This document shows positions 24,066-37,715 of a stretch of DNA of 64,000 nucleotides, one piece after another. The stretch is taken from contig CAVSQW010000006.1 of assembly GCA_963730185.1 (NCBI GenBank), positions 1 to 64,000 of the forward strand. The letters are read 5' to 3'. Below the pieces are notes generated by a model. It was not told the origin of the DNA and did not search any database. It saw only the letters and a list, made by a program, of their open reading frames with translations. This DNA comes from an uncultured Gemmatimonadales bacterium (GTDB lineage: Bacteria > Gemmatimonadota > Gemmatimonadetes > Gemmatimonadales > GWC2-71-9). Every line of letters starts with the position of its first letter. Position 1 is the first letter of the stretch. Both the position numbers and the translations under genes were made by a program.

Positions 24066-24308
24066 ATGCCAAAAGCGAAAGTCGCGGTGACCCTCGATAG
24101 CAGCACCCTGAAACGGGTCGACCGGCTGGTCCGCGAGGCACGGTACCCAAACCGGAGCCAGGCCATCGAAGCAGCCATCGCCGCCCAGCTGGACCGCTTG
24201 GAGCGGCGGCGGCTGGCCGAGGAGTGTGCCAAACTGGACCCGGCCGCCGAGCGGGCGCTGGCGGAGGAGGGCCTTGGCGTCGAGGCGGCGGAATGGCCGG
24301 AATACTGA
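24066..24308 (+). CDS. Ribbon-helix-helix antitoxin
   Basis: RBS GGAGG; MPKAKVAVTLD..L..VD.LV....PNRSQAIE; acidic C-terminus overlapping the toxin start. Confidence 0.88.
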   Translation: MPKAKVAVTLDSSTLKRVDRLVREARYPNRSQAIEAAIAAQLDRLERRRLAEECAKLDPAAERALAEEGLGVEAAEWPEY

Positions 24309-24631
24309 GAGGCGAGATCCGCTGGGCGGACCTCAACCCGACCCGGGGCCACGAGCAGGCCGGCCAGCGGCCGGTGCTGATCCTGAGTCACGACGTCTTC
24401 AACGAGCGCTCCGGTACGGTGATCGCCGTGGCCCTCACCAGCCAGGCACAACGGGCCGCCTTTCCCCTCACCCTGGAGCTGACCAGCCCCAAGCTGCCGA
24501 AGCGTTCCTGGGTGAAGATCAGCCAGATCCGCACCCTCGCCGTGGAGCGGATCGGACGGCGGCTGGGGCGGGCCTCCGCCGAGGAACTGACTCAGGTCGT
24601 GGAAGGGCTGAACGAGATCATCGGCGCCTGA
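24293..24631 (+). CDS. mazF: PemK/MazF family endoribonuclease toxin
   Basis: RGEIRWADLNPTRGHEQAGQRPVLILS..FN, SQIRTL..RIGRRLG. Confidence 0.93.
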   Translation: MAGILRGEIRWADLNPTRGHEQAGQRPVLILSHDVFNERSGTVIAVALTSQAQRAAFPLTLELTSPKLPKRSWVKISQIRTLAVERIGRRLGRASAEELTQVVEGLNEIIGA

Positions 24632-27481: not shown

Positions 27482-30133
27482 CTACAGCCCTTCCCTGTTC
27501 TCATCGAATCCGGCGGCACGGAGTCGATTGATGATATTGAAACAGTGATTGTTACCTGCTTCGCGCTGCAGCCCCAGGCTGGCGTATTTCCATGCCTGGT
27601 CCTTGTTGTTCTCAAGAAGGTAGAGCCAGGCCAACCGACTGAGCCCCGTTGCATCAAGATCCGCGGCATGGGCTGACATATGTTCCCGGAGAGTTGCGAC
27701 ATATACACTCCGCCGGGTGATTGGTATCTCCGCGGAATGATCGTTGATGTACTTGCATACTTCATAAGCGACTTCCCGAATGAGGGCCGTATCGGCCGGG
27801 TCGGCTTCAACCGCCAGGAGCCGGCTTGAGATGTATGTGGCCTCGTCACCCGCGGCTCGAGCGAGGACAGCTCGCTCAAGCATCGCAACCTTGTTTGAGG
27901 GAACTTCCTCGACCGCCCGACGTAGAGCGTAGTCCACCGCCTCATGCGAAGCCCCCAGTGCCTTGCGAACTCTTGCAAGAGGCAGCCACGCTTCCGGCCA
28001 GAGTTCCGCAAGGCTCTCCAGTACCCCCACCATACGCGCCCGATCTTGGGCGTCTTCCATGTCGAGGCCAGTCGCCACCACGGAGTCCACGAATCGCTGC
28101 AGGACCTCTCGCTGTGGCACCTGCACCGCCTGGGCAGTGGTGATGACACCAAACTTCTGAAGGACGGCGAGGTCCTGCTGAATCACAAGGCGGTCAGGAT
28201 CGCCCTCAAGCTTCTTCCGAGCAAAGACTCTCGCGAGTTGAGGCGCTGAATAGGCGGGCTGGTCGTCCAGAAAGGTTCTCGCCTCCAACAAGGAGAGTCG
28301 AACGCACTCATCGAGACCCGCATCAACGTCCACACCGCGCGGCCCGAGTACCACGAGGAGCGCGAGCTCGGAGACGAGCGAGCGCCAACAAGCAACCGTC
28401 AGGAAAACATTCCTCCCATCATCTGTCAGCTTGTTGAATGAGCGCTCGAACACGGCGTTTACGATATCGAGTCGTCTTGGTAGCATGCTCTTTGCAGGTA
28501 CGTACCGGCCTTCCTTCGCCAACTCGCCGACCAACACCCGCATGACGTACGGGTGACCTTCAGAGTACTCGAACATGCTGGCCTTAACATCGTTAGTAAG
28601 AATTGGTTCCACGCCGAGATCACGGGCCGCAAGTGTCATCAGGGCAAACGACTCCGTGCGATCCATGCCGTGGACTTCAATAGGGAAGTCTGCTTTGAAG
28701 GCACGCTCGCGGCTTGTGATTAGAACCTTGTTTGGTAGGTGAGTGTGCGTATCTAGAAAGCGGTGCAGATCCCGAATTCCTTGCATCGTCTCGAAATTGT
28801 CGAAAACAAAGAGTGTCCCGTTGCCGGGAGGAATCGGAGTCGCGAGGGCGTGGGCGAAAGCTTCGGGTGTACCCTCCGTCTCAAATAGCTGGCCGTATAT
28901 CCTGCTGACGCCCTCCAAGTTGACTGCAGCCGGTCGTACGTCCGTGGGTCCACGGGGTCGCAGATCGATGTCGCGGGCGCTAACCCAAACGATGTGCTCG
29001 AAGATGGGACCAGCCTCAGCCGCGAGCGCGTGGCACACCTTCAGCGCCAGACTAGTCTTCCCGATACCGCCGCGCCCATGCAGCGTGATGATTGGGTGAT
29101 TCTTATCGCGAAGGCGTCGGTCAAGCTCCTGCTCAAGCCCCCCGCGTGTTACATATCCTAGTGGGAGAGGTGGGAGATTGCCGAAGACGTTGCTCTGTAC
29201 TTCAAAGGCAGGCAGGCCCTGTGTCTCGCTAGGGGGGAGGGGTACAGGTGGACGCAAGAAGGCATTTACATCCTTCTTCTCCGTCCGGCCCGTGCCGTAA
29301 TCAATGAACCAGGCGTTGCCACTTGAATATCCCCCGTTCGGCAATTGAAACGTCGTACACTCTCGGTTGACGTGCAGAAGATCGGAGCAAGGTAGCGGAT
29401 GAATAGCCGCGATAGGCCAAACGTGTACTCCTAGGGCTCGTACTTGAACGTCTGCAAGCTCTGAGTCCTTCAAGTGTTTTGGGGTTTGACCCGATAGCAG
29501 AACTCCACGCTTCTTGCCATTGTCGCGCGTCATCAGGTGCACCCAGCGCCAACCGAAGAGCGGACAGTTAGCAATGAAGGACGTGACGGCCCGCAAGAAG
29601 GGACCATTCGCGCGGTCGAAGAAGTCCAAGCCAACGGCGCCGTGTGCACGCGTCTTGTTGCGTAGCTGGACGAAAGCACCGATTAGGTCACGCGCTGTGG
29701 GCCGGCGGGCGGGAAGGGGTGAATCGAACCCCAGCAAAGCAAAGATCTGAGTGAGTTCGCCGGCAGCGTCGGCAAACCAAGGATCTTCAGTGGGCTTCCT
29801 GATCTTGCCTGCCCAGGTTAACAGGTCCGCGTAGGCCGGCGGGAGGAAGCCGCCGAGTGGCTGACTTGACGCTTGACGTATCCACACGTCCCAGGTGCCC
29901 AAGCCATCAGCTCTCACCAGATCGTATGCCATCCTGTAGGCCGCATCTGGCGCCTTGTCCCTAAGCCCCGCGTAGAACGCCACACCTAGCAACTTGATCG
30001 CTGCCTCGGACACGTACGAGGTCATCAAGAACGTATCCGCGCCGGAACTGTCCCCGACAACACCAACTCGCCGGAACACCGCGCTGATCGGTGTCGGCAG
30101 TTCACTTAGGTCAAGACTTGCCTGAGGAGTCAT
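27482..30133 (-). CDS. STAND NB-ARC NTPase with N-terminal HEPN-like domain and C-terminal TPR-like region
   Basis: NLPP..YVTR, Walker A HGRGGIGKT, VWVSAR, Walker B LFVFDNFE, VLITSRER, EGHP (GxP). N-terminal GLGTW and LRNKTRAHG. Codon third positions visibly more A/T than neighbours. Confidence 0.85.
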   Translation of the reverse strand: MTPQASLDLSELPTPISAVFRRVGVVGDSSGADTFLMTSYVSEAAIKLLGVAFYAGLRDKAPDAAYRMAYDLVRADGLGTWDVWIRQASSQPLGGFLPPAYADLLTWAGKIRKPTEDPWFADAAGELTQIFALLGFDSPLPARRPTARDLIGAFVQLRNKTRAHGAVGLDFFDRANGPFLRAVTSFIANCPLFGWRWVHLMTRDNGKKRGVLLSGQTPKHLKDSELADVQVRALGVHVWPIAAIHPLPCSDLLHVNRECTTFQLPNGGYSSGNAWFIDYGTGRTEKKDVNAFLRPPVPLPPSETQGLPAFEVQSNVFGNLPPLPLGYVTRGGLEQELDRRLRDKNHPIITLHGRGGIGKTSLALKVCHALAAEAGPIFEHIVWVSARDIDLRPRGPTDVRPAAVNLEGVSRIYGQLFETEGTPEAFAHALATPIPPGNGTLFVFDNFETMQGIRDLHRFLDTHTHLPNKVLITSRERAFKADFPIEVHGMDRTESFALMTLAARDLGVEPILTNDVKASMFEYSEGHPYVMRVLVGELAKEGRYVPAKSMLPRRLDIVNAVFERSFNKLTDDGRNVFLTVACWRSLVSELALLVVLGPRGVDVDAGLDECVRLSLLEARTFLDDQPAYSAPQLARVFARKKLEGDPDRLVIQQDLAVLQKFGVITTAQAVQVPQREVLQRFVDSVVATGLDMEDAQDRARMVGVLESLAELWPEAWLPLARVRKALGASHEAVDYALRRAVEEVPSNKVAMLERAVLARAAGDEATYISSRLLAVEADPADTALIREVAYEVCKYINDHSAEIPITRRSVYVATLREHMSAHAADLDATGLSRLAWLYLLENNKDQAWKYASLGLQREAGNNHCFNIINRLRAAGFDENREGL

Positions 30134-30464
30134 GGTAGCCGTAACGAGCAAGAGCACTAGCGAGGCCTACCCTGCGGCAGCGACTTGCCGTCGCCGCTTC
30201 TACGGCTGGGCAGGCGGGAGCATACAAGCGCCGCCCTTGTCGACTCGCAAGGCCAATTCGGGGCGGGGCGCTTGTCGGTGCTAAGTCCTATTGGCAATTT
30301 GACGGCCCCAGGCCCGAAGTTTCCCCACCCCAACCACGGCTTCATCGCCCGAGACCTCCATTCACTACGGCCAAGTTCGAATGCGCCCGGGCCAACCACC
30401 AGCCTTCCGCTCCAGAGCCCCGTCCCCCCATGGCTCCTACCCGCTACCCCGCTACCTTCCCCCC

Positions 30465-32719: not shown

Positions 32720-33127
32720 ATGACAGTACGCCCGGCCTACGACACCCGCACCCACGGGCCGACCTCGATCTCGGAGCCGGTCGAGATCGTCCGGCCCGCC
32801 CTCCAGGGCATCGATGCCCGGCTCGACCTCCCGTCCGGCCGCACCATCGAGTGCGCCGACGCCGAGGCCGGGGGCGAGCTGGTCACGATCCGGAGCCCCG
32901 GCGGTCAAGTGGAGTTGGAGATCCGGCTCACCGACCGGGGCCCGGTGCTCCGCTTCGAGGCCGCCAGCCTCGACCTCGAGGCCGCGGGCCGGATCCGGAC
33001 CCGCTGCAAGTCCTTCGAGGTGGTGGCCGAGGACGCCGCGATCACCGCCACCCGGGGCGACGTCCAGCTCCGGGCCAACGACGACGTCCGACTCAACGGG
33101 GAGCGCGTCAAGCTGAACTGCAGCTGA
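32720..33127 (+). CDS. Small protein resembling a VgrG/gp5 C-terminal beta-helix tail (DUF6484-like)
   Basis: RBS AGGAG; short alternating beta segments (LDLEAAGRIRTRC, AITATRGDVQLRANDDVRLNGERVKLN); first gene before DUF2169 genes. Confidence 0.6.
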   Translation: MTVRPAYDTRTHGPTSISEPVEIVRPALQGIDARLDLPSGRTIECADAEAGGELVTIRSPGGQVELEIRLTDRGPVLRFEAASLDLEAAGRIRTRCKSFEVVAEDAAITATRGDVQLRANDDVRLNGERVKLNCS

Positions 33128-33142
33128 GACGCGAGACGAGCC

Positions 33143-34201
33143 ATCGAATTCCAGAACACCGTCCCCTTCGGGGCCCGCTTCCTCAATACCGTCTTCGGCG
33201 AAGACCGCTCGCTCGGCACCGTGATCGCCCGGCCGTGCTTCCGGATCGAGGACGACCGGCTGGCATTCGACGCCGAGACCGAGATGCCGATCGAGGCCGC
33301 CCCGATGGCGACGCCGTTCGGCAATCTCCCGGCCGACACGCCGTTCGTCTCGGGCGGGGTCGACGTCTTCGTGATCGGGCAGGCCCGCCCGCCGCTGGGC
33401 AACCCCGCGTCGGAGCTCCGGGTCGACGTGAGCGTCGGGAGCTCGTTCCGGCGGTCCATCCGGGTGGTGGGCGACCGGGTCTGGCGGGCCAAGGCCTCGG
33501 CCGGCGGCAAGACCACCGCCGCCCTGCTCGAGCCCACCCCGCCGGTGCCGTTCACGGCCATGCCGCTGACCTGGGACCGGGCCTTCGGCGGCAAGACCAA
33601 GATGGAAGACTACGAGTACTTCTTCCCGGCCAACCCCGAGGGCCGGGGCTTCTACGCCACGGCCGACGAGGCCCTGGGCAAGCCGCTGCCCAACCTGGAG
33701 GACCCCGAGGCGCCGATCAAGTCGGTCGAGGACCAGCCCGAGCCGGTCGGCACCGCGCCCTACCCCCAGGCCGGCTCTCTCAAGTCGCTCGCCGCGCTCG
33801 ACCTGAAGGTCGACCAGGCCAATTCCGAGAACACCCGGATCGAGCGGATCAAGCCGCTCCTCTTCAACTCGGCCTCGCCCCGGATGATCGTCCCGCCGGC
33901 CCAGAGCCCCAAACCCGGCGAGCTGGTCGAGGTGACCAACGTCCGGACCTCGGGCCCGATCCGGTTCACGATGCCCGACCTGGCCATGCACGTCCACGTC
34001 CAGCTCGAGAACCGGCAGTACGTCTTCCCGCTCCACCTCGACCAGATCGGCATTCTGGCCGAGGAGCGCCGGGTGTTCCTCTCGTTCAGGGTGGCGTTCA
34101 AGTATCGGATCGTGGCCCGCGAGCGCCGCCGGGCCACCCTCCGGCGGGGTCCGGCGCCGGCGGAGATCCCGGCCGACTACACCATCGGCTGGGGGACCTG
34201 A
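33143..34201 (+). CDS. DUF2169 family T6SS adaptor/chaperone (copy 1)
   Basis: VDVFVIGQARPP, IRVVGDRVW, PFTAMPLTWDRAFGG, NPEGRGF, LPNLEDP, FNSASP. The frame is open upstream to ATC at 33143 (xEFQNTVPF). Confidence 0.88.
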   Translation: MEFQNTVPFGARFLNTVFGEDRSLGTVIARPCFRIEDDRLAFDAETEMPIEAAPMATPFGNLPADTPFVSGGVDVFVIGQARPPLGNPASELRVDVSVGSSFRRSIRVVGDRVWRAKASAGGKTTAALLEPTPPVPFTAMPLTWDRAFGGKTKMEDYEYFFPANPEGRGFYATADEALGKPLPNLEDPEAPIKSVEDQPEPVGTAPYPQAGSLKSLAALDLKVDQANSENTRIERIKPLLFNSASPRMIVPPAQSPKPGELVEVTNVRTSGPIRFTMPDLAMHVHVQLENRQYVFPLHLDQIGILAEERRVFLSFRVAFKYRIVARERRRATLRRGPAPAEIPADYTIGWGT

Positions 34202-34203
34202 CC

Positions 34204-35469
34204 GTGACCGATCCCGCCACCGGCCCGTCCGGCTTCCCCGCCCCGCCGACCGAGCTGCCCCCGGAGCTCGGCCAGTTCGAGACCGAGCCGTCCACCCAGG
34301 AGATCATCGACGGCAAGCCCGGGGGGGTGCCCATGGTGGCCCTGGTGCTCAAGCGCACCTACCGGATCGGGTCGCGCGGGGGCTGGGAGCCCGTGGCCGA
34401 CGACGACCAGGAGGTGGTGGTCGAGGACGAGATCCCGTACGAGGAGGCCGAGCCGCCCTTCGTCTCCCCGATCTTCCACAGCGACGACACCCTCTTCCGG
34501 CCCCGGACCGACGTCGTGGTGCAGGGCTCGGCCTGGGCCCCCGGGTCGCCGGCCCAGCGGCTGACCGTCCGGTTCCGGATGGGCGACCTCAAGCGCGACA
34601 TCCTGGTGTCCGGTGCCCGGAACGTGGAGCGCGGATCGGCCCGCGAGCTCCGGTTCACCGAGCCCGAGCCGTTCGAGTCCATCCCGCTCCGCTACGACCG
34701 GGCCTACGGCGGGGTGGACCTCCGGGCCTGGATGCTGACCCGGACGCCCCTGGAGGCCGATCTCCAGCGGGTCATGCCCGGCCTGCCGCTGGCCTCGTCG
34801 TCGCCCTACCACTACCCTCGTAACCCGGCCGGAATGGGCTTCCTGATCGAGGCCGCGCCCTACGACCTGGCCGACCTCCTGGTGCCCCACCTGGAGTACG
34901 AGCACGACCCGGTCACCGCCGACCGGCTGGCGGTGGGTAGCCCGGACCGCTGGACCAGCGCGCCGCTCCCGGCCGGGATGGACTGGCAGGGCTGCGACTG
35001 GTTCCCCCGGAAGGGCTACCTCGGCCTCCACGGGCTCCCGGCCGACTTCGCGGGGCGGGTGGCCGAGCGCGACCTGGGCTGGGCGCCGGCCGACCTGCTC
35101 CAGACCGGGTCGATGCTTCAGGGCCACCAGCCCCGGGCCGAATACGGACAGGGCGCCTCGGCGGGCATGGTCACCGACCTCTCGCTCGAAACGATCCGGG
35201 CCGGCATCCCGGTCAAGCTGGTCCACCTCCACCCCGAGCGGCCCGAGCTCACCATGGAGCTCCCCCGCGACTGGCCGGTGGCCAAGCTGGGACTCGGCGG
35301 TCCCTCGATGACCGACCTGACCCCGAAGCTGAGCGCCGTCGTGATCCGCCCGGACGACTTGGAGGTGGTGATGGTCTGGTGCGCCGAGACCAGGCGGTCC
35401 AGGGAGTACACCCCGAAGCAGTACGCCGAGATGGCCACCGAGGTGGCCTGGCGGCGAGATCCGAGATAG
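34204..35469 (+). CDS. DUF2169 family T6SS adaptor/chaperone (copy 2)
   Basis: LVLKRTY, RPRTDVVVQGSAWAP, PEPFESIPLRYDRAYGG, YPRNPAGMGF, WFPRKGYLG, LVHLHPE, VVIRPDDLEVVMVW. Confidence 0.88.
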   Translation: MTDPATGPSGFPAPPTELPPELGQFETEPSTQEIIDGKPGGVPMVALVLKRTYRIGSRGGWEPVADDDQEVVVEDEIPYEEAEPPFVSPIFHSDDTLFRPRTDVVVQGSAWAPGSPAQRLTVRFRMGDLKRDILVSGARNVERGSARELRFTEPEPFESIPLRYDRAYGGVDLRAWMLTRTPLEADLQRVMPGLPLASSSPYHYPRNPAGMGFLIEAAPYDLADLLVPHLEYEHDPVTADRLAVGSPDRWTSAPLPAGMDWQGCDWFPRKGYLGLHGLPADFAGRVAERDLGWAPADLLQTGSMLQGHQPRAEYGQGASAGMVTDLSLETIRAGIPVKLVHLHPERPELTMELPRDWPVAKLGLGGPSMTDLTPKLSAVVIRPDDLEVVMVWCAETRRSREYTPKQYAEMATEVAWRRDPR

Positions 35470-35478
35470 GAGGGCACG

Positions 35479-36489
35479 ATGGGCTGGCAAGCGCTCGCGC
35501 ATCTTCGTTGGCACCCCTTCATCGGGCTCTGCTGGCACGACGGCATCATCGCCGCCGTCCCGCCGATCCCGACCCCCAAGATGCCGCACATCACCTTCAA
35601 CGTGCTGAACGGCCTCTTCCTCGGCGCCCTGCCGTCGGATTCGCCGGCCGGCATGGTGCAGGGACCGGGCGGGATTCCCTTCATGGGCCGGACCAACGAC
35701 GCGGGGTTCATCACCCCCCACGTCTCGATTCCGCCCAACAATTTCCTGCTCCCGCTCACCATTCTCTTCGGCAGCTCGGAGTCGATGCTGGGGTCGTCCA
35801 AGGTCAAGATCCAGTGCACCAACCTGATCTTCGGGGCGGACGAGTACGACATTTCGGCCTGCACCATCCCGGTCATTCCGCTGAGCACCAACTTCGGGTG
35901 CAACGACCCGCTGTTCGTGCCGCTCGACATGGTGATCTCGCCGAACACCGTGGTGGTCGAGATCACCCTGGTCGACCTGCTGAAGATGCTGGTCGACCTG
36001 ATCATCGCCGCCCTGATCGAGGGGCTGATGATGCTGGGCGGGGCGGCCCTCAAGAAGGTCTTCAAGAAGGTCAAGGCCAAGCGCTCCGCCTCGAAGCTCG
36101 CCAAGGCGTCGGGGGCGGGCGACGATGCCTACAAGGCCGCCTACAAGCACGCCGACGACGTCGACGTCGACCACGCCTTCAAGGAAGGGCTCCGGAAGCA
36201 GCGGGCCAAGGCGACCGGTGCCCCGATCCCGCCCCCCAAGCCGAACTTCAAGGCCCGGAAGGAGGCCAAGAAGGCGGGCGACGAAGCGTTCAACAAGGAG
36301 TTCCGGAAGCAGTTCCCACCGGCGAAGCCGGGCCCGGACCTCGGCGACAAGGTCGACCACGTTTTGCAGATCGGGCGGATCGGGGCGGCCCTTCGCCACA
36401 CCGCCAAGGAAGTCGTCAGCAACGTGATCGAGGGAGCGCTGGGACACGCCGCGCCCGGCGCCAACGACATCCTGGACGTCAAGAAGTAG
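35479..36489 (+). CDS. PAAR-like N-terminal domain protein with hydrophobic segment and Lys-rich C-terminal extension (putative effector)
   Basis: RBS AGGAGG; HPFIGLCWH..PPIPTPKMPH, GIPFMGRTNDAG..PH, GSSKV, GCNDP, NTVVV; then LLKMLVDLIIAALIEGLMMLGGAAL and a basic helical tail. Confidence 0.65.
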   Translation: MGWQALAHLRWHPFIGLCWHDGIIAAVPPIPTPKMPHITFNVLNGLFLGALPSDSPAGMVQGPGGIPFMGRTNDAGFITPHVSIPPNNFLLPLTILFGSSESMLGSSKVKIQCTNLIFGADEYDISACTIPVIPLSTNFGCNDPLFVPLDMVISPNTVVVEITLVDLLKMLVDLIIAALIEGLMMLGGAALKKVFKKVKAKRSASKLAKASGAGDDAYKAAYKHADDVDVDHAFKEGLRKQRAKATGAPIPPPKPNFKARKEAKKAGDEAFNKEFRKQFPPAKPGPDLGDKVDHVLQIGRIGAALRHTAKEVVSNVIEGALGHAAPGANDILDVKK

Positions 36490-36521
36490 CGGCGCCCGAC
36501 CGGCGCCCCTGGAGGCCGACA

Positions 36522-36731
36522 ATGGACAGCGAGACCTTCGACCAGCTCCCCAAGCGCGAGCAGCTTGGCATCGCCCTGAACCTGGCGGCCAGCGTCTTCG
36601 GCAAGGAGCGGGTCAAGCGCCACTACCAGCACATCGCCCCGCTGGTCGAGGACCGGGTCGGCCACGGCGCGGTCGCCGACCCGGCCCAGAACTACTGGGG
36701 CGGGGTGTGGCAGGTTTACAATGCGGACTGA
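36522..36731 (+). CDS. Small hypothetical protein (candidate immunity)
   Basis: RBS GGAGG, ATG, 69 aa, host-like codon usage, immediately after the putative effector. Confidence 0.65.
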   Translation: MDSETFDQLPKREQLGIALNLAASVFGKERVKRHYQHIAPLVEDRVGHGAVADPAQNYWGGVWQVYNAD

Positions 36732-36746
36732 CCCGCACCCGGAGAC

Positions 36747-37715
36747 TTGATGCCCGGCTCGTCCGGTCCCGACCCTCTCGCCACGATTCGCGAGCGCGCC
36801 CCCGACCACCGGGTGTTCGGGGAGCTCGGCCGCACCAGCGACGACGACGTCTGGTACCTGGCCCGGAAAGAGGGTGAGGATCCGCTGGTCGCCCTCCGGC
36901 TCTCCCGGGCCGGGGTGGACGAGTGGGGCGATCCCCGCTACGAGCTCGCCGTCGCCAACGAGCTGGGGAGCGACGTCCCCACCGATCAGGGGAACTGCGT
37001 CGCCTGCGGCGCCCCGCTCCGGAGCTTCGCCCGGTTCTGCACCCGCTGTGGCGCCGACCAGAGCAAGGGGATGCGCGAAGGGGGCTCGGACGACGAGCGG
37101 AAGGTCCTCCTCGCCGAGGTCCGGGCCGCCGCCGCCGAGGTGTACGACGTGCTGGGCGAGATGCCGCAGGCCGACGGCGGCGGGACCGTCTACTTCGCCC
37201 TCGAGCGGCAGTCCGGCGAGCTGGTCCGGCTCCGGCTCCGCGAGGGCAACGAGGGGATGGAGCTCCACGAGACGGCCGTCGCGATGCATCTGGACCAGCT
37301 GGTGACGGCCACCCGGATTCGCTCCGGCGCCTTCCCCCGCCCCAGCGTCCGGATCTCGCCACCCCTCGGCGTCACGGCCCCGCCGCCGACCGCGCCCGAG
37401 CCGGCGGCTCCCGAGCCGGGGCCCCTGCCCCCCGAGGCGGCCGCGCCTCCGCCCGAGCCGGTGAGCCCACCGAGCCCGGTTCAGCCCGCCCCCCGCCCGA
37501 GCGCCCCGCGGCCCGTCCTGCCCGATCCCGGTCCGGCCCGGCCGTCCGGCCGACCCGCTCCGCCGCTCTTCGCACCGACCAACGAGCACGTGTCGCCCCG
37601 GGTCGCGTCGCGGCAGGCACCCCGGGCGTCCGACCGCGAGCGCCAGCTCCTCTGGGCCGTGGTGGTTCTGGCGGCCATCGTCCTGATCGAGACCACCCTG
37701 CTCCTGGTTCGCTGA
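36747..37715 (+). CDS. Membrane-anchored protein with two kinase N-lobe-like repeats, double zinc ribbon and Pro-rich linker
   Basis: HRVFGELGR...VWYLAR...LVALRL; CVAC...FCTRC; YDVLGEM...GTVYFALE...LVRLRL; Pro-rich tract; C-terminal TM. No HRD or DFG. Confidence 0.7.
   Translation: MMPGSSGPDPLATIRERAPDHRVFGELGRTSDDDVWYLARKEGEDPLVALRLSRAGVDEWGDPRYELAVANELGSDVPTDQGNCVACGAPLRSFARFCTRCGADQSKGMREGGSDDERKVLLAEVRAAAAEVYDVLGEMPQADGGGTVYFALERQSGELVRLRLREGNEGMELHETAVAMHLDQLVTATRIRSGAFPRPSVRISPPLGVTAPPPTAPEPAAPEPGPLPPEAAAPPPEPVSPPSPVQPAPRPSAPRPVLPDPGPARPSGRPAPPLFAPTNEHVSPRVASRQAPRASDRERQLLWAVVVLAAIVLIETTLLLVR

Follow-up and report, generated by a model that had tools for sequence, protein, structure and literature searches.

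The window analysed here covers the opening 64 kb of contig C6 (578 kb) in the genome of an uncultured Gemmatimonadales bacterium (G000; 17 contigs, 82% complete). It contains a cassette of five genes, which encode a 135-amino acid (aa) tail protein, two DUF2169 proteins, a 336-aa protein with a predicted PAAR-type spike-tip fold, and a 69-aa unit (Table 1). We consider the cassette to be probably a conserved module, present here as an intact orphan, that loads the spike tip of a type VI secretion system (T6SS) in two steps, in the manner of Tvp systems, with the VgrG encoded on contig C12 as the likely acceptor.

The five genes are real, and their arrangement is not due to chance, because the identical five-gene order recurs in two other loci (L027 and L049). 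All five open reading frames (ORFs) translate without internal stops, lie 15, 2, 9, and 32 nucleotides (nt) apart, and have a GC content of 0.66 to 0.73 (0.94 to 0.96 at third codon positions, GC3) on a contig with a GC content of 0.70. This agrees with an initial annotation of the window, which had described five close-set, frameshift-free genes of host composition, with no VgrG, Hcp, sheath, baseplate, or Rhs gene in the 64 kb. None of these families was matched in the window when 44 of its remaining 55 called genes were scanned with Pfam at E ≤ 1e-8, along with seven proteins scanned separately (the 11 unscanned genes are all ≤128 aa except for one kinase-like ORF). A sigma-70 promoter and a forward terminator were looked for, and neither was found. 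The first, fourth, and fifth genes have no Pfam or NCBIfam match above cut-off, and, among named relatives, those nearest to the cassette proteins come from metagenome-assembled genomes of Gemmatimonadales.

The module is conserved well beyond this genome. A tail gene is followed directly by a DUF2169 gene in 20 of 22 metagenome loci, and the remaining two end within 160 nt. Among loci with at least 3 kb of downstream sequence, 10 of 11 have a PAAR-like gene and 8 of 11 have two DUF2169 genes. A full vgrG lies directly upstream of the tail gene in seven of the 11 loci with at least 0.9 kb upstream; several of the metagenome loci are near-identical, leaving about four independent vgrG-linked lineages. 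One locus (L049) comprises exactly the five genes behind a type-i vgrG, while vgrG is absent beside the cassette in both G000 and L027. L027 and L028 likewise keep the cassette proteins together, at ~62 to 64% identity. Thus, the tail protein is a companion of VgrG and no substitute for it, contrary to the initial annotation. That annotation had also considered a fragment of a standard vgrG locus: the module is indeed vgrG-linked elsewhere, but the G000 copy is intact and vgrG-less. The module is rare, as its PAAR family is matched in 3 of 401 genomes of the phylum. Of 301 family genomes, the tail profile matched four, and in two of these only VgrG accounts for the match. One vgrG locus (L064:540-2142 and L065:2071-3150) has the twin-DUF2169 module downstream and, upstream on the opposite strand, a third DUF2169 gene; in L064 a PIPY-motif protein comes after this gene, which places both tip types at one locus.

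Table 1. Coordinates of the cassette, its linked neighbour, and the T6SS cluster of the same genome.
Feature	Position	Strand	Basis
135-aa OB-less TvpC-like tail protein, predicted trimeric decoy spike	32720-33127	+	VgrG C-terminal-half homology, model
DUF2169/TvpA subtype a, 352 aa from inferred ATC start	33143-34201	+	PF09937 E 1.2e-48
DUF2169/TvpA subtype b, 421 aa	34204-35469	+	PF09937 E 6.4e-42
336-aa spike-tip protein, predicted PAAR-fold domain, helix, and basic tail	35479-36489	+	AlphaFold2, structural matches
69-aa unit, C-terminal part of four PAAR homologs elsewhere	36522-36731	+	phmmer
Linked sixth gene, 321-aa zinc-ribbon protein with hydrophobic C-terminal end	36750-37715	+	Sub-threshold zinc-ribbon Pfam matches
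T6SS cluster	G000:C12:297000-341000 (L001, L080)		Pfam/profile matches

Spike tip, putative decoy spike, and paired DUF2169 proteins

The 336-aa protein has a conical PAAR fold, as judged from its structure model. AlphaFold2 (135 sequences) places this domain at residues ~1 to 162, followed by a hydrophobic helix (162 to 180) and a basic helical tail, with a predicted local distance difference test score (pLDDT) above 90 over residues 1 to 180. All six structural matches at Z ≥ 5 are PAAR proteins or spike tips of phages and extracellular contractile injection systems, aligned to residues 4 to 162. The best are 4jiw_D (Z 8.4, root-mean-square deviation 2.5, 93 of 93 residues aligned) and 5iv5_ZA (Z 8.3); a Z near 8 may be generic for this aligner, but here six matches belong to one family and the next row scores 4.2. 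Foldseek found no match for the model in the PDB, where the wider aligner did. For the PAAR part, the ESM Atlas gave leads only: its match at 0.92 is a cluster without a name, and PAAR families that have names score no higher than 0.77 to 0.81.

This fold belongs to a family that Pfam misses. A profile search recovers 512 representatives at E ≤ 0.001. The 336-aa protein has no Pfam or NCBIfam match at E ≤ 1, and DUF4150 (PF13665), PAAR_motif (PF05488), DUF4280, and toxin families are matched by none of the 143 family members scanned. In a PF14107 search, no control was matched. Thus, the earlier description of a PAAR-like domain distinct from DUF4150 holds, while that of a toxin finds no counterpart among the 143 family members.

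The tip appears closer to the zinc type of PAAR protein. The metal ligand set of canonical PAAR proteins is His/His/His/Cys. Across the 135 sequences, His20 is conserved in 96%, His81 in 99%, and Cys141 in 100%; 129 of the 135 have all three, and 93 have His37 in addition. The P[IV]P[YF] (PIPY) motif occurs in 15 of these sequences, the 336-aa protein not being among them, and P[AIV]AR in one. We suggest metal binding by the tip because these His/His/Cys positions are conserved, whereas DUF4150 has no zinc site according to the available text of Sachar et al. 2025 (PMC11883445).

Beyond the PAAR fold, the family is variable. The helix that follows the domain has a peak hydropathy of 2.27 (at least 1.6 in 85 of the 135 sequences), and the tail beyond residue 190 contains 32 Lys/Arg against 18 Asp/Glu. 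Structural matches to this tail are generic helices, with no recognisable toxin domain, although a toxin of a new kind may be present. C-terminal regions differ widely in length and sequence across the family, and 93 of 146 representatives are ≤350 aa. Seven of the 143 members scanned (P0060, P0061, P0062, P0070, P0077, P0081, and P0086) end in Big_12 immunoglobulin (Ig)-like domains; such spike tips may bring adhesin-like cargo.

The 69-aa unit fits the role of cargo or structural cap better than that of an immunity protein, which the initial annotation had proposed. Immunity is unlikely because the unit is fused to the secreted chain in four PAAR homologs, where it matches the C-termini of P0067 (6.5e-17), P0013 (1.6e-15), P0103 (1e-5), and P0100 (1.3e-3). 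As a separate gene just after the PAAR gene, it is found only in G000, L027, L028, and L049. In L049 it is 43% identical, and the PAAR protein is much longer (484 aa). The unit is modelled as three helices (mean pLDDT 72), with no structural match at Z ≥ 5 and no usable ESM Atlas match, and a search among proteins of near length found only three close homologs.

The 135-aa protein appears, from its homology, to be the C-terminal half of a VgrG, that is, a short beta-prism comprising only the part that follows the OB domain. By tblastn it is 30% identical, over 103 aa, to a C-terminal stretch of the C12 VgrG (E 2e-5), its family profile matches residues 454 to 583 of the VgrG 8gra_I (E 5e-8), and 20 of 44 tail homologs match DUF2345 (E ≤ 0.01). 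The protein has no hub or OB domain for seating on the tube, which argues against the minimal delivery system that the initial annotation had entertained. Rather, it resembles TvpC, the decoy spike of Tvp loading systems, but without the OB fold, and the Tvp systems set out in the available text of Monlezun et al. 2026 (PMC13373197) offer an explanation for a tail-only protein. Longer versions (176 to 199 aa) occur near type-i T6SS genes in three genomes (G249, G391, and G309); their extra N-terminal part looks OB-like by eye, with no profile match.

Structure modelling, which the initial annotation had proposed, joins tail and tip. Three copies of tail residues 28 to 135 together with the PAAR domain score 0.65, against 0.00 for the best of three controls. 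In calibration, the pass mark was attained by 116 of the 157 solved complexes, as opposed to 2 of the 215 mismatched pairs. The modelled interface consists of residues 127 to 135 of all three tail copies, and runs share at least 93% of contacts, with a partner pLDDT of 61 to 63. The model suggests that the PAAR domain caps a trimer of the 135-aa protein via its last strand.

The two middle genes both encode DUF2169 proteins, yet these align with each other over just 165 aa at 31% identity. In a quick tree of 46 rows, subtype a forms a clade of 15 rows (SH-like approximate likelihood ratio test, SH-aLRT, 99) and subtype b a separate clade of 16 rows (SH-aLRT 92). The pair is therefore old, and the two divergent copies reported in the initial annotation are upheld. 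A phmmer search with subtype a found no match in the PDB. At a type-i T6SS locus of another genome (G302:C3:3387381-3388272; L015, L024), a DUF2169 gene is matched in two reading frames, pointing to a possible frameshift.

The first DUF2169 gene apparently starts with ATC in both Gemmatimonadales copies (33143-33145 in the window; just past 5677 in L027). We consider ATC 33143 the most likely start because the PF09937 match begins at 33206, ahead of the first GTG at 33221, and because the ATC is retained in L027; the upstream bound is the stop of the tail gene. Other loci have ATG or GTG at the matching place. Such a start could keep the level of the first DUF2169 chaperone low. Read-through from the tail gene, which is in the same frame in G000, was rejected, as the frames differ in L027.

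A candidate partner machine on contig C12

The machine served by the module is likely a Bacteroidota-like T6SS cluster on C12, the only one found in G000. In six-frame searches of this genome, a VgrG hub with OB domain, TssC, and a canonical PAAR protein were found on C12 only. The cluster comprises tssB, tssC, an Hcp candidate, a gene in the tssE position, vgrG, a baseplate gene, tssG, tssK, and a gene for a ClpV-like ATPase, along with FHA, vWA, and kinase genes and the canonical PAAR gene. Its presence substantiates the distant T6SS that the initial annotation had envisaged for an orphan module. Of the tssBC, hcp, vgrG, and afp genes which that annotation had suggested looking for in the genome, tssB, tssC, and vgrG are present on C12, Hcp is identified by position only, and no PF04984 sheath was found.

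The C12 sheath is of an unusual type. Its TssC matches PF17541 (E 1e-21, 77.8 bits, cut-off 25) and was missed by the PF05943 and PF04984 searches; it matched no PDB sequence. The best solved relatives of the C12 VgrG are 9jg8_G and 8gra_I, the latter from B. fragilis according to the available text of PMC13402684. Searches for TssL and for PF05943 and PF04984 sheaths found none in the 82% complete G000 genome, while their controls matched. PF17555 (TssN) was matched in none of 13 genomes, but no control matched either. The Hcp candidate is a conserved 146-aa gene between tssC and the tssE position; it has no support from Pfam, PDB profiles, or hhalign against four type-i Hcp-like proteins.

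The surroundings of the cluster include several further genes. It is led by a transmembrane gene, ubiquitin-like and FHA-like by eye (no Pfam match), and a vWA transmembrane gene, and it is flanked by FHA, TPR, kinase, and zinc-ribbon genes. At C12:330767-341485 (L080), the canonical PAAR gene is followed by a peptidoglycan-binding gene and several large unassigned genes. Homologs of this region lie beside C12-type clusters in four other genomes (G126, G147, G038, and G382), and it is likely the native cargo region of the C12 machine. In G106 (L071:16424-20000), the VgrG of a C12-type cluster is longer, at 862 aa, and what may be a second vgrG begins farther along.

Several observations connect the module to this machine. 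Three genomes (G000, G401, and G402) each have a PF17541 TssC and one VgrG OB domain, and a type-i sheath was not found in these or in the fourth carrier genome, G548. In G548, the opening gene of the C12-type operon has a homolog that stands head to head with the tail gene and the two DUF2169 genes. Furthermore, a sixth gene starts 18 nt after the cassette in G000 and also follows it in L027 and L028, though not in L049. Its only close paralog (C12:323415-324731; 41% over 165 aa, E 6e-26) flanks the C12 cluster.

Proposed loading mechanism and its alternatives

We propose that the 135-aa protein would trimerise into a short beta-prism that mimics VgrG, and that the PAAR-fold domain would dock on its last strand, as modelled. 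The two DUF2169 subtypes would jointly shield the PAAR cone and the hydrophobic helix, the second perhaps taking the place of TvpD (Class II) or TvpB (Class III). By analogy with Serratia, as described in the available text of PMC13373197, the decoy in this pre-complex would then be exchanged for a real VgrG, to which the capped tip would be handed over. The acceptor would most likely be the single VgrG of the C12 cluster, with the tip serving as an alternative to the canonical PAAR of that cluster. The weakest step concerns the payload. Here we only tentatively suggest that the hydrophobic and basic helical tail acts on target membranes, and that the 69-aa unit is split-off cargo, not immunity.

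A number of points weigh against this two-step loading onto the C12 machine. Each of the six VgrGs scanned that are linked to the module belongs to type i (TIGR03361 above cut-off), unlike the C12 VgrG, which also has ~40 extra residues after its last strand. Nine of the 10 genomes with a PF17541 TssC lack DUF2169, G000 alone having it, and the module is therefore not a core part of the C12-type machine. The carrier genomes are kin and incomplete, and co-occurrence among kin is weak evidence because three of six same-genus genomes carry a C12-type TssC regardless. G548, an assembly of 650 contigs, gave no TssC match; Hcp on C12 is known by its position; and homologs of the sixth gene adjoin T6SS clusters of both types, type i included. 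As to the module itself, most loci lack the 69-aa gene, no toxin family was matched, three loci have a single DUF2169 gene (L054, L055, and L058), and both DUF2169 copies of G165 cluster together in the tree. Finally, the tail-PAAR score comes from a modelling job unlike its calibration set, and may stem from resemblance to solved VgrG-PAAR structures.

Some of these points would equally suit the same module working with a type-i VgrG and T6SS that are missing from the assembly, or persisting as a stranded island without current use. We regard this as unlikely. The type-i VgrGs, the incompleteness of G000, and the absence of DUF2169 from nine of the 10 genomes speak for it, and L049, with the five genes behind a type-i vgrG, makes G000 look like a vgrG-loss derivative. 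However, none of the four carrier genomes yielded a type-i sheath, and three of them have a single VgrG. The intact genes, with a GC3 of 0.94 to 0.96, are kept together in L027 and L028, which does not suggest a stranded island, and in G548 the module is physically joined to a C12-type operon.

In a reading along the lines of the initial annotation, which we find rather improbable, the trimeric tail would be secreted as the end of the spike, either as one part of a split VgrG or as an extension of the spike, and would bear a toxin neutralised by the 69-aa protein. This would agree with the tail being homologous to the C-terminal half of VgrG, with the modelled docking of the PAAR domain, and with the small gene directly downstream of a PAAR protein whose variable C-terminus is basic behind its hydrophobic helix. 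Yet in relatives the tail gene adjoins a full-length vgrG that includes a terminal strand of its own, and in Serratia the TvpC and VgrG1 complexes exclude each other, according to the available text of PMC13373197. The 69-aa unit, fused to four homologs and retained in L049 despite the 484-aa PAAR protein there, is unlikely to be an immunity protein, and a toxin family was matched in none of 143 proteins.

We give little credence to a tip that is structural or adhesive and not toxic, in which a PAAR domain with a membrane anchor or Ig-like adhesin would serve attachment or fill the baseplate cavity: the lack of a toxin domain throughout the family, the Big_12 ends, the many short members, and the effector-less PAARs that accompany Class III Tvp systems (available text of PMC13373197) are in its favour, but the C-terminal regions vary as widely as polymorphic cargo does, the G000 protein itself has no Ig domain, and the idea concerns the payload alone and is compatible with the loading mechanism.

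Two further features of the window are separate from the cassette. An 891-aa NB-ARC/STAND ATPase (27482-30157, minus strand) lies in a low-GC stretch (58 to 62% vs 70%); it was probably acquired and possibly has a defensive role. At 24066-24631 (plus strand), a small gene precedes one for a PemK/MazF-like toxin, and the two form an ordinary type II toxin-antitoxin pair.

Comparison with known systems

The module would work like a Class II or III Tvp system but belongs to no published class. In the available text of Monlezun et al. 2026 (PMC13373197), TvpA is a DUF2169 protein and TvpC a DUF6484 or DUF3540 protein. As in Classes II and III, vgrG is followed in the module by a short mimic of VgrG that is predicted to be trimeric, by DUF2169, and by a tip with a PAAR fold, and in our model the last strand of the mimic holds the PAAR domain. 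Unlike them, its mimic has no OB fold. Unlike any published class, it has two DUF2169 subtypes in separate clades. It also has no match to the pentapeptide TvpB/TvpAB and no TvpD/PRK06147-like gene in the cassette, its tip gives no DUF4150 match, and the G000 copy has no adjacent vgrG. It departs from Class I, where TvpA is the sole accessory, in its tail protein and second DUF2169; from Class II in the lack of a TvpD-like gene and of DUF6484 (0 of 44 tail homologs); and from Class III in the lack of a pentapeptide match in any cassette gene. DUF3540, the TvpC type of Class III, is matched in 3 of 44 tail homologs (E ≤ 0.01, best 0.0012) and not in the 135-aa protein itself. We place the module outside all Tvp classes because DUF4150, a DUF6484 mimic with OB fold, TvpD, and TvpB are all missing from it.

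The module also differs from the DUF2169-PIPY complexes of Sachar et al. 2025 (PMC11883445), although both have single-domain DUF2169 genes beside a PAAR-fold gene. In the available text of that study, DUF2169 falls into synteny types A to C, co-occurs strictly with DUF4150, and does so mostly 1:1. Here, by contrast, the ratio of DUF2169 to PAAR is 2:1, DUF4150 is not matched, and His/His/Cys are conserved. About 20% of the genes in that study were left uncategorised, according to the same text, and these may include such loci.

Compared with canonical PAAR proteins (E. coli c1882, 4JIW; the T4 tip in 5IV5), the tip has the same predicted conical fold, modelled docking on a trimeric beta-prism, and a candidate His/His/His/Cys metal site. 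Unlike them, it is a ~160-aa domain with long insertions, has no PF05488 match, and is tied to DUF2169 chaperones.

The C12 machine resembles the T6SS-iii of Bacteroidota in its PF17541 TssC, its VgrG relatives (9jg8_G and 8gra_I), and the lack of a TssL match. It differs from T6SS-iii in its Gemmatimonadota-type host and in its vWA, FHA, kinase, and zinc-ribbon flanks. Profiles for TssN (controls silent) and TssD gave no match. In the parts of the literature available to us, T6SS-iii is reported only from Bacteroidetes, and we found no account of it in this phylum; yet 10 of the 401 genomes from the phylum have a PF17541 TssC.

Our literature searches found no description of the twin-DUF2169 architecture; Figs S11 and S12 of PMC13373197 (Myxococcota, Acidobacteriota, and Planctomycetota loci), which lie outside the portion of that paper covered here, may bear on its novelty. 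A bolder reading, which we offer as a possibility more doubtful than the loading mechanism itself, is that of a fourth Tvp class, whose two DUF2169 subtypes, together with a decoy prism that lacks the OB fold, load the large zinc-type PAAR family missed by Pfam. In Gemmatimonadales, the module would have shed the type-i vgrG and been reconnected to a Bacteroidota-like T6SS of an undescribed kind, one that works without a TssJLM or a TssN membrane complex. If this is true, a warhead loader crosses T6SS subtypes and delivers a class of cargo without a known toxin fold.

Regardless, the module departs from two published rules, namely the mostly 1:1 pairing of DUF2169 with DUF4150 tips and the sorting into three classes. 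Surveys based on Pfam would overlook the cargo of its PAAR family. As a small, co-expressible set of proteins, it makes it possible to test what a decoy spike needs, given that the OB fold is absent, and why some tips need chaperones. The module is real and conserved, appears to be an undescribed variant of the recently described Tvp-type systems, and probably serves an unusual T6SS.

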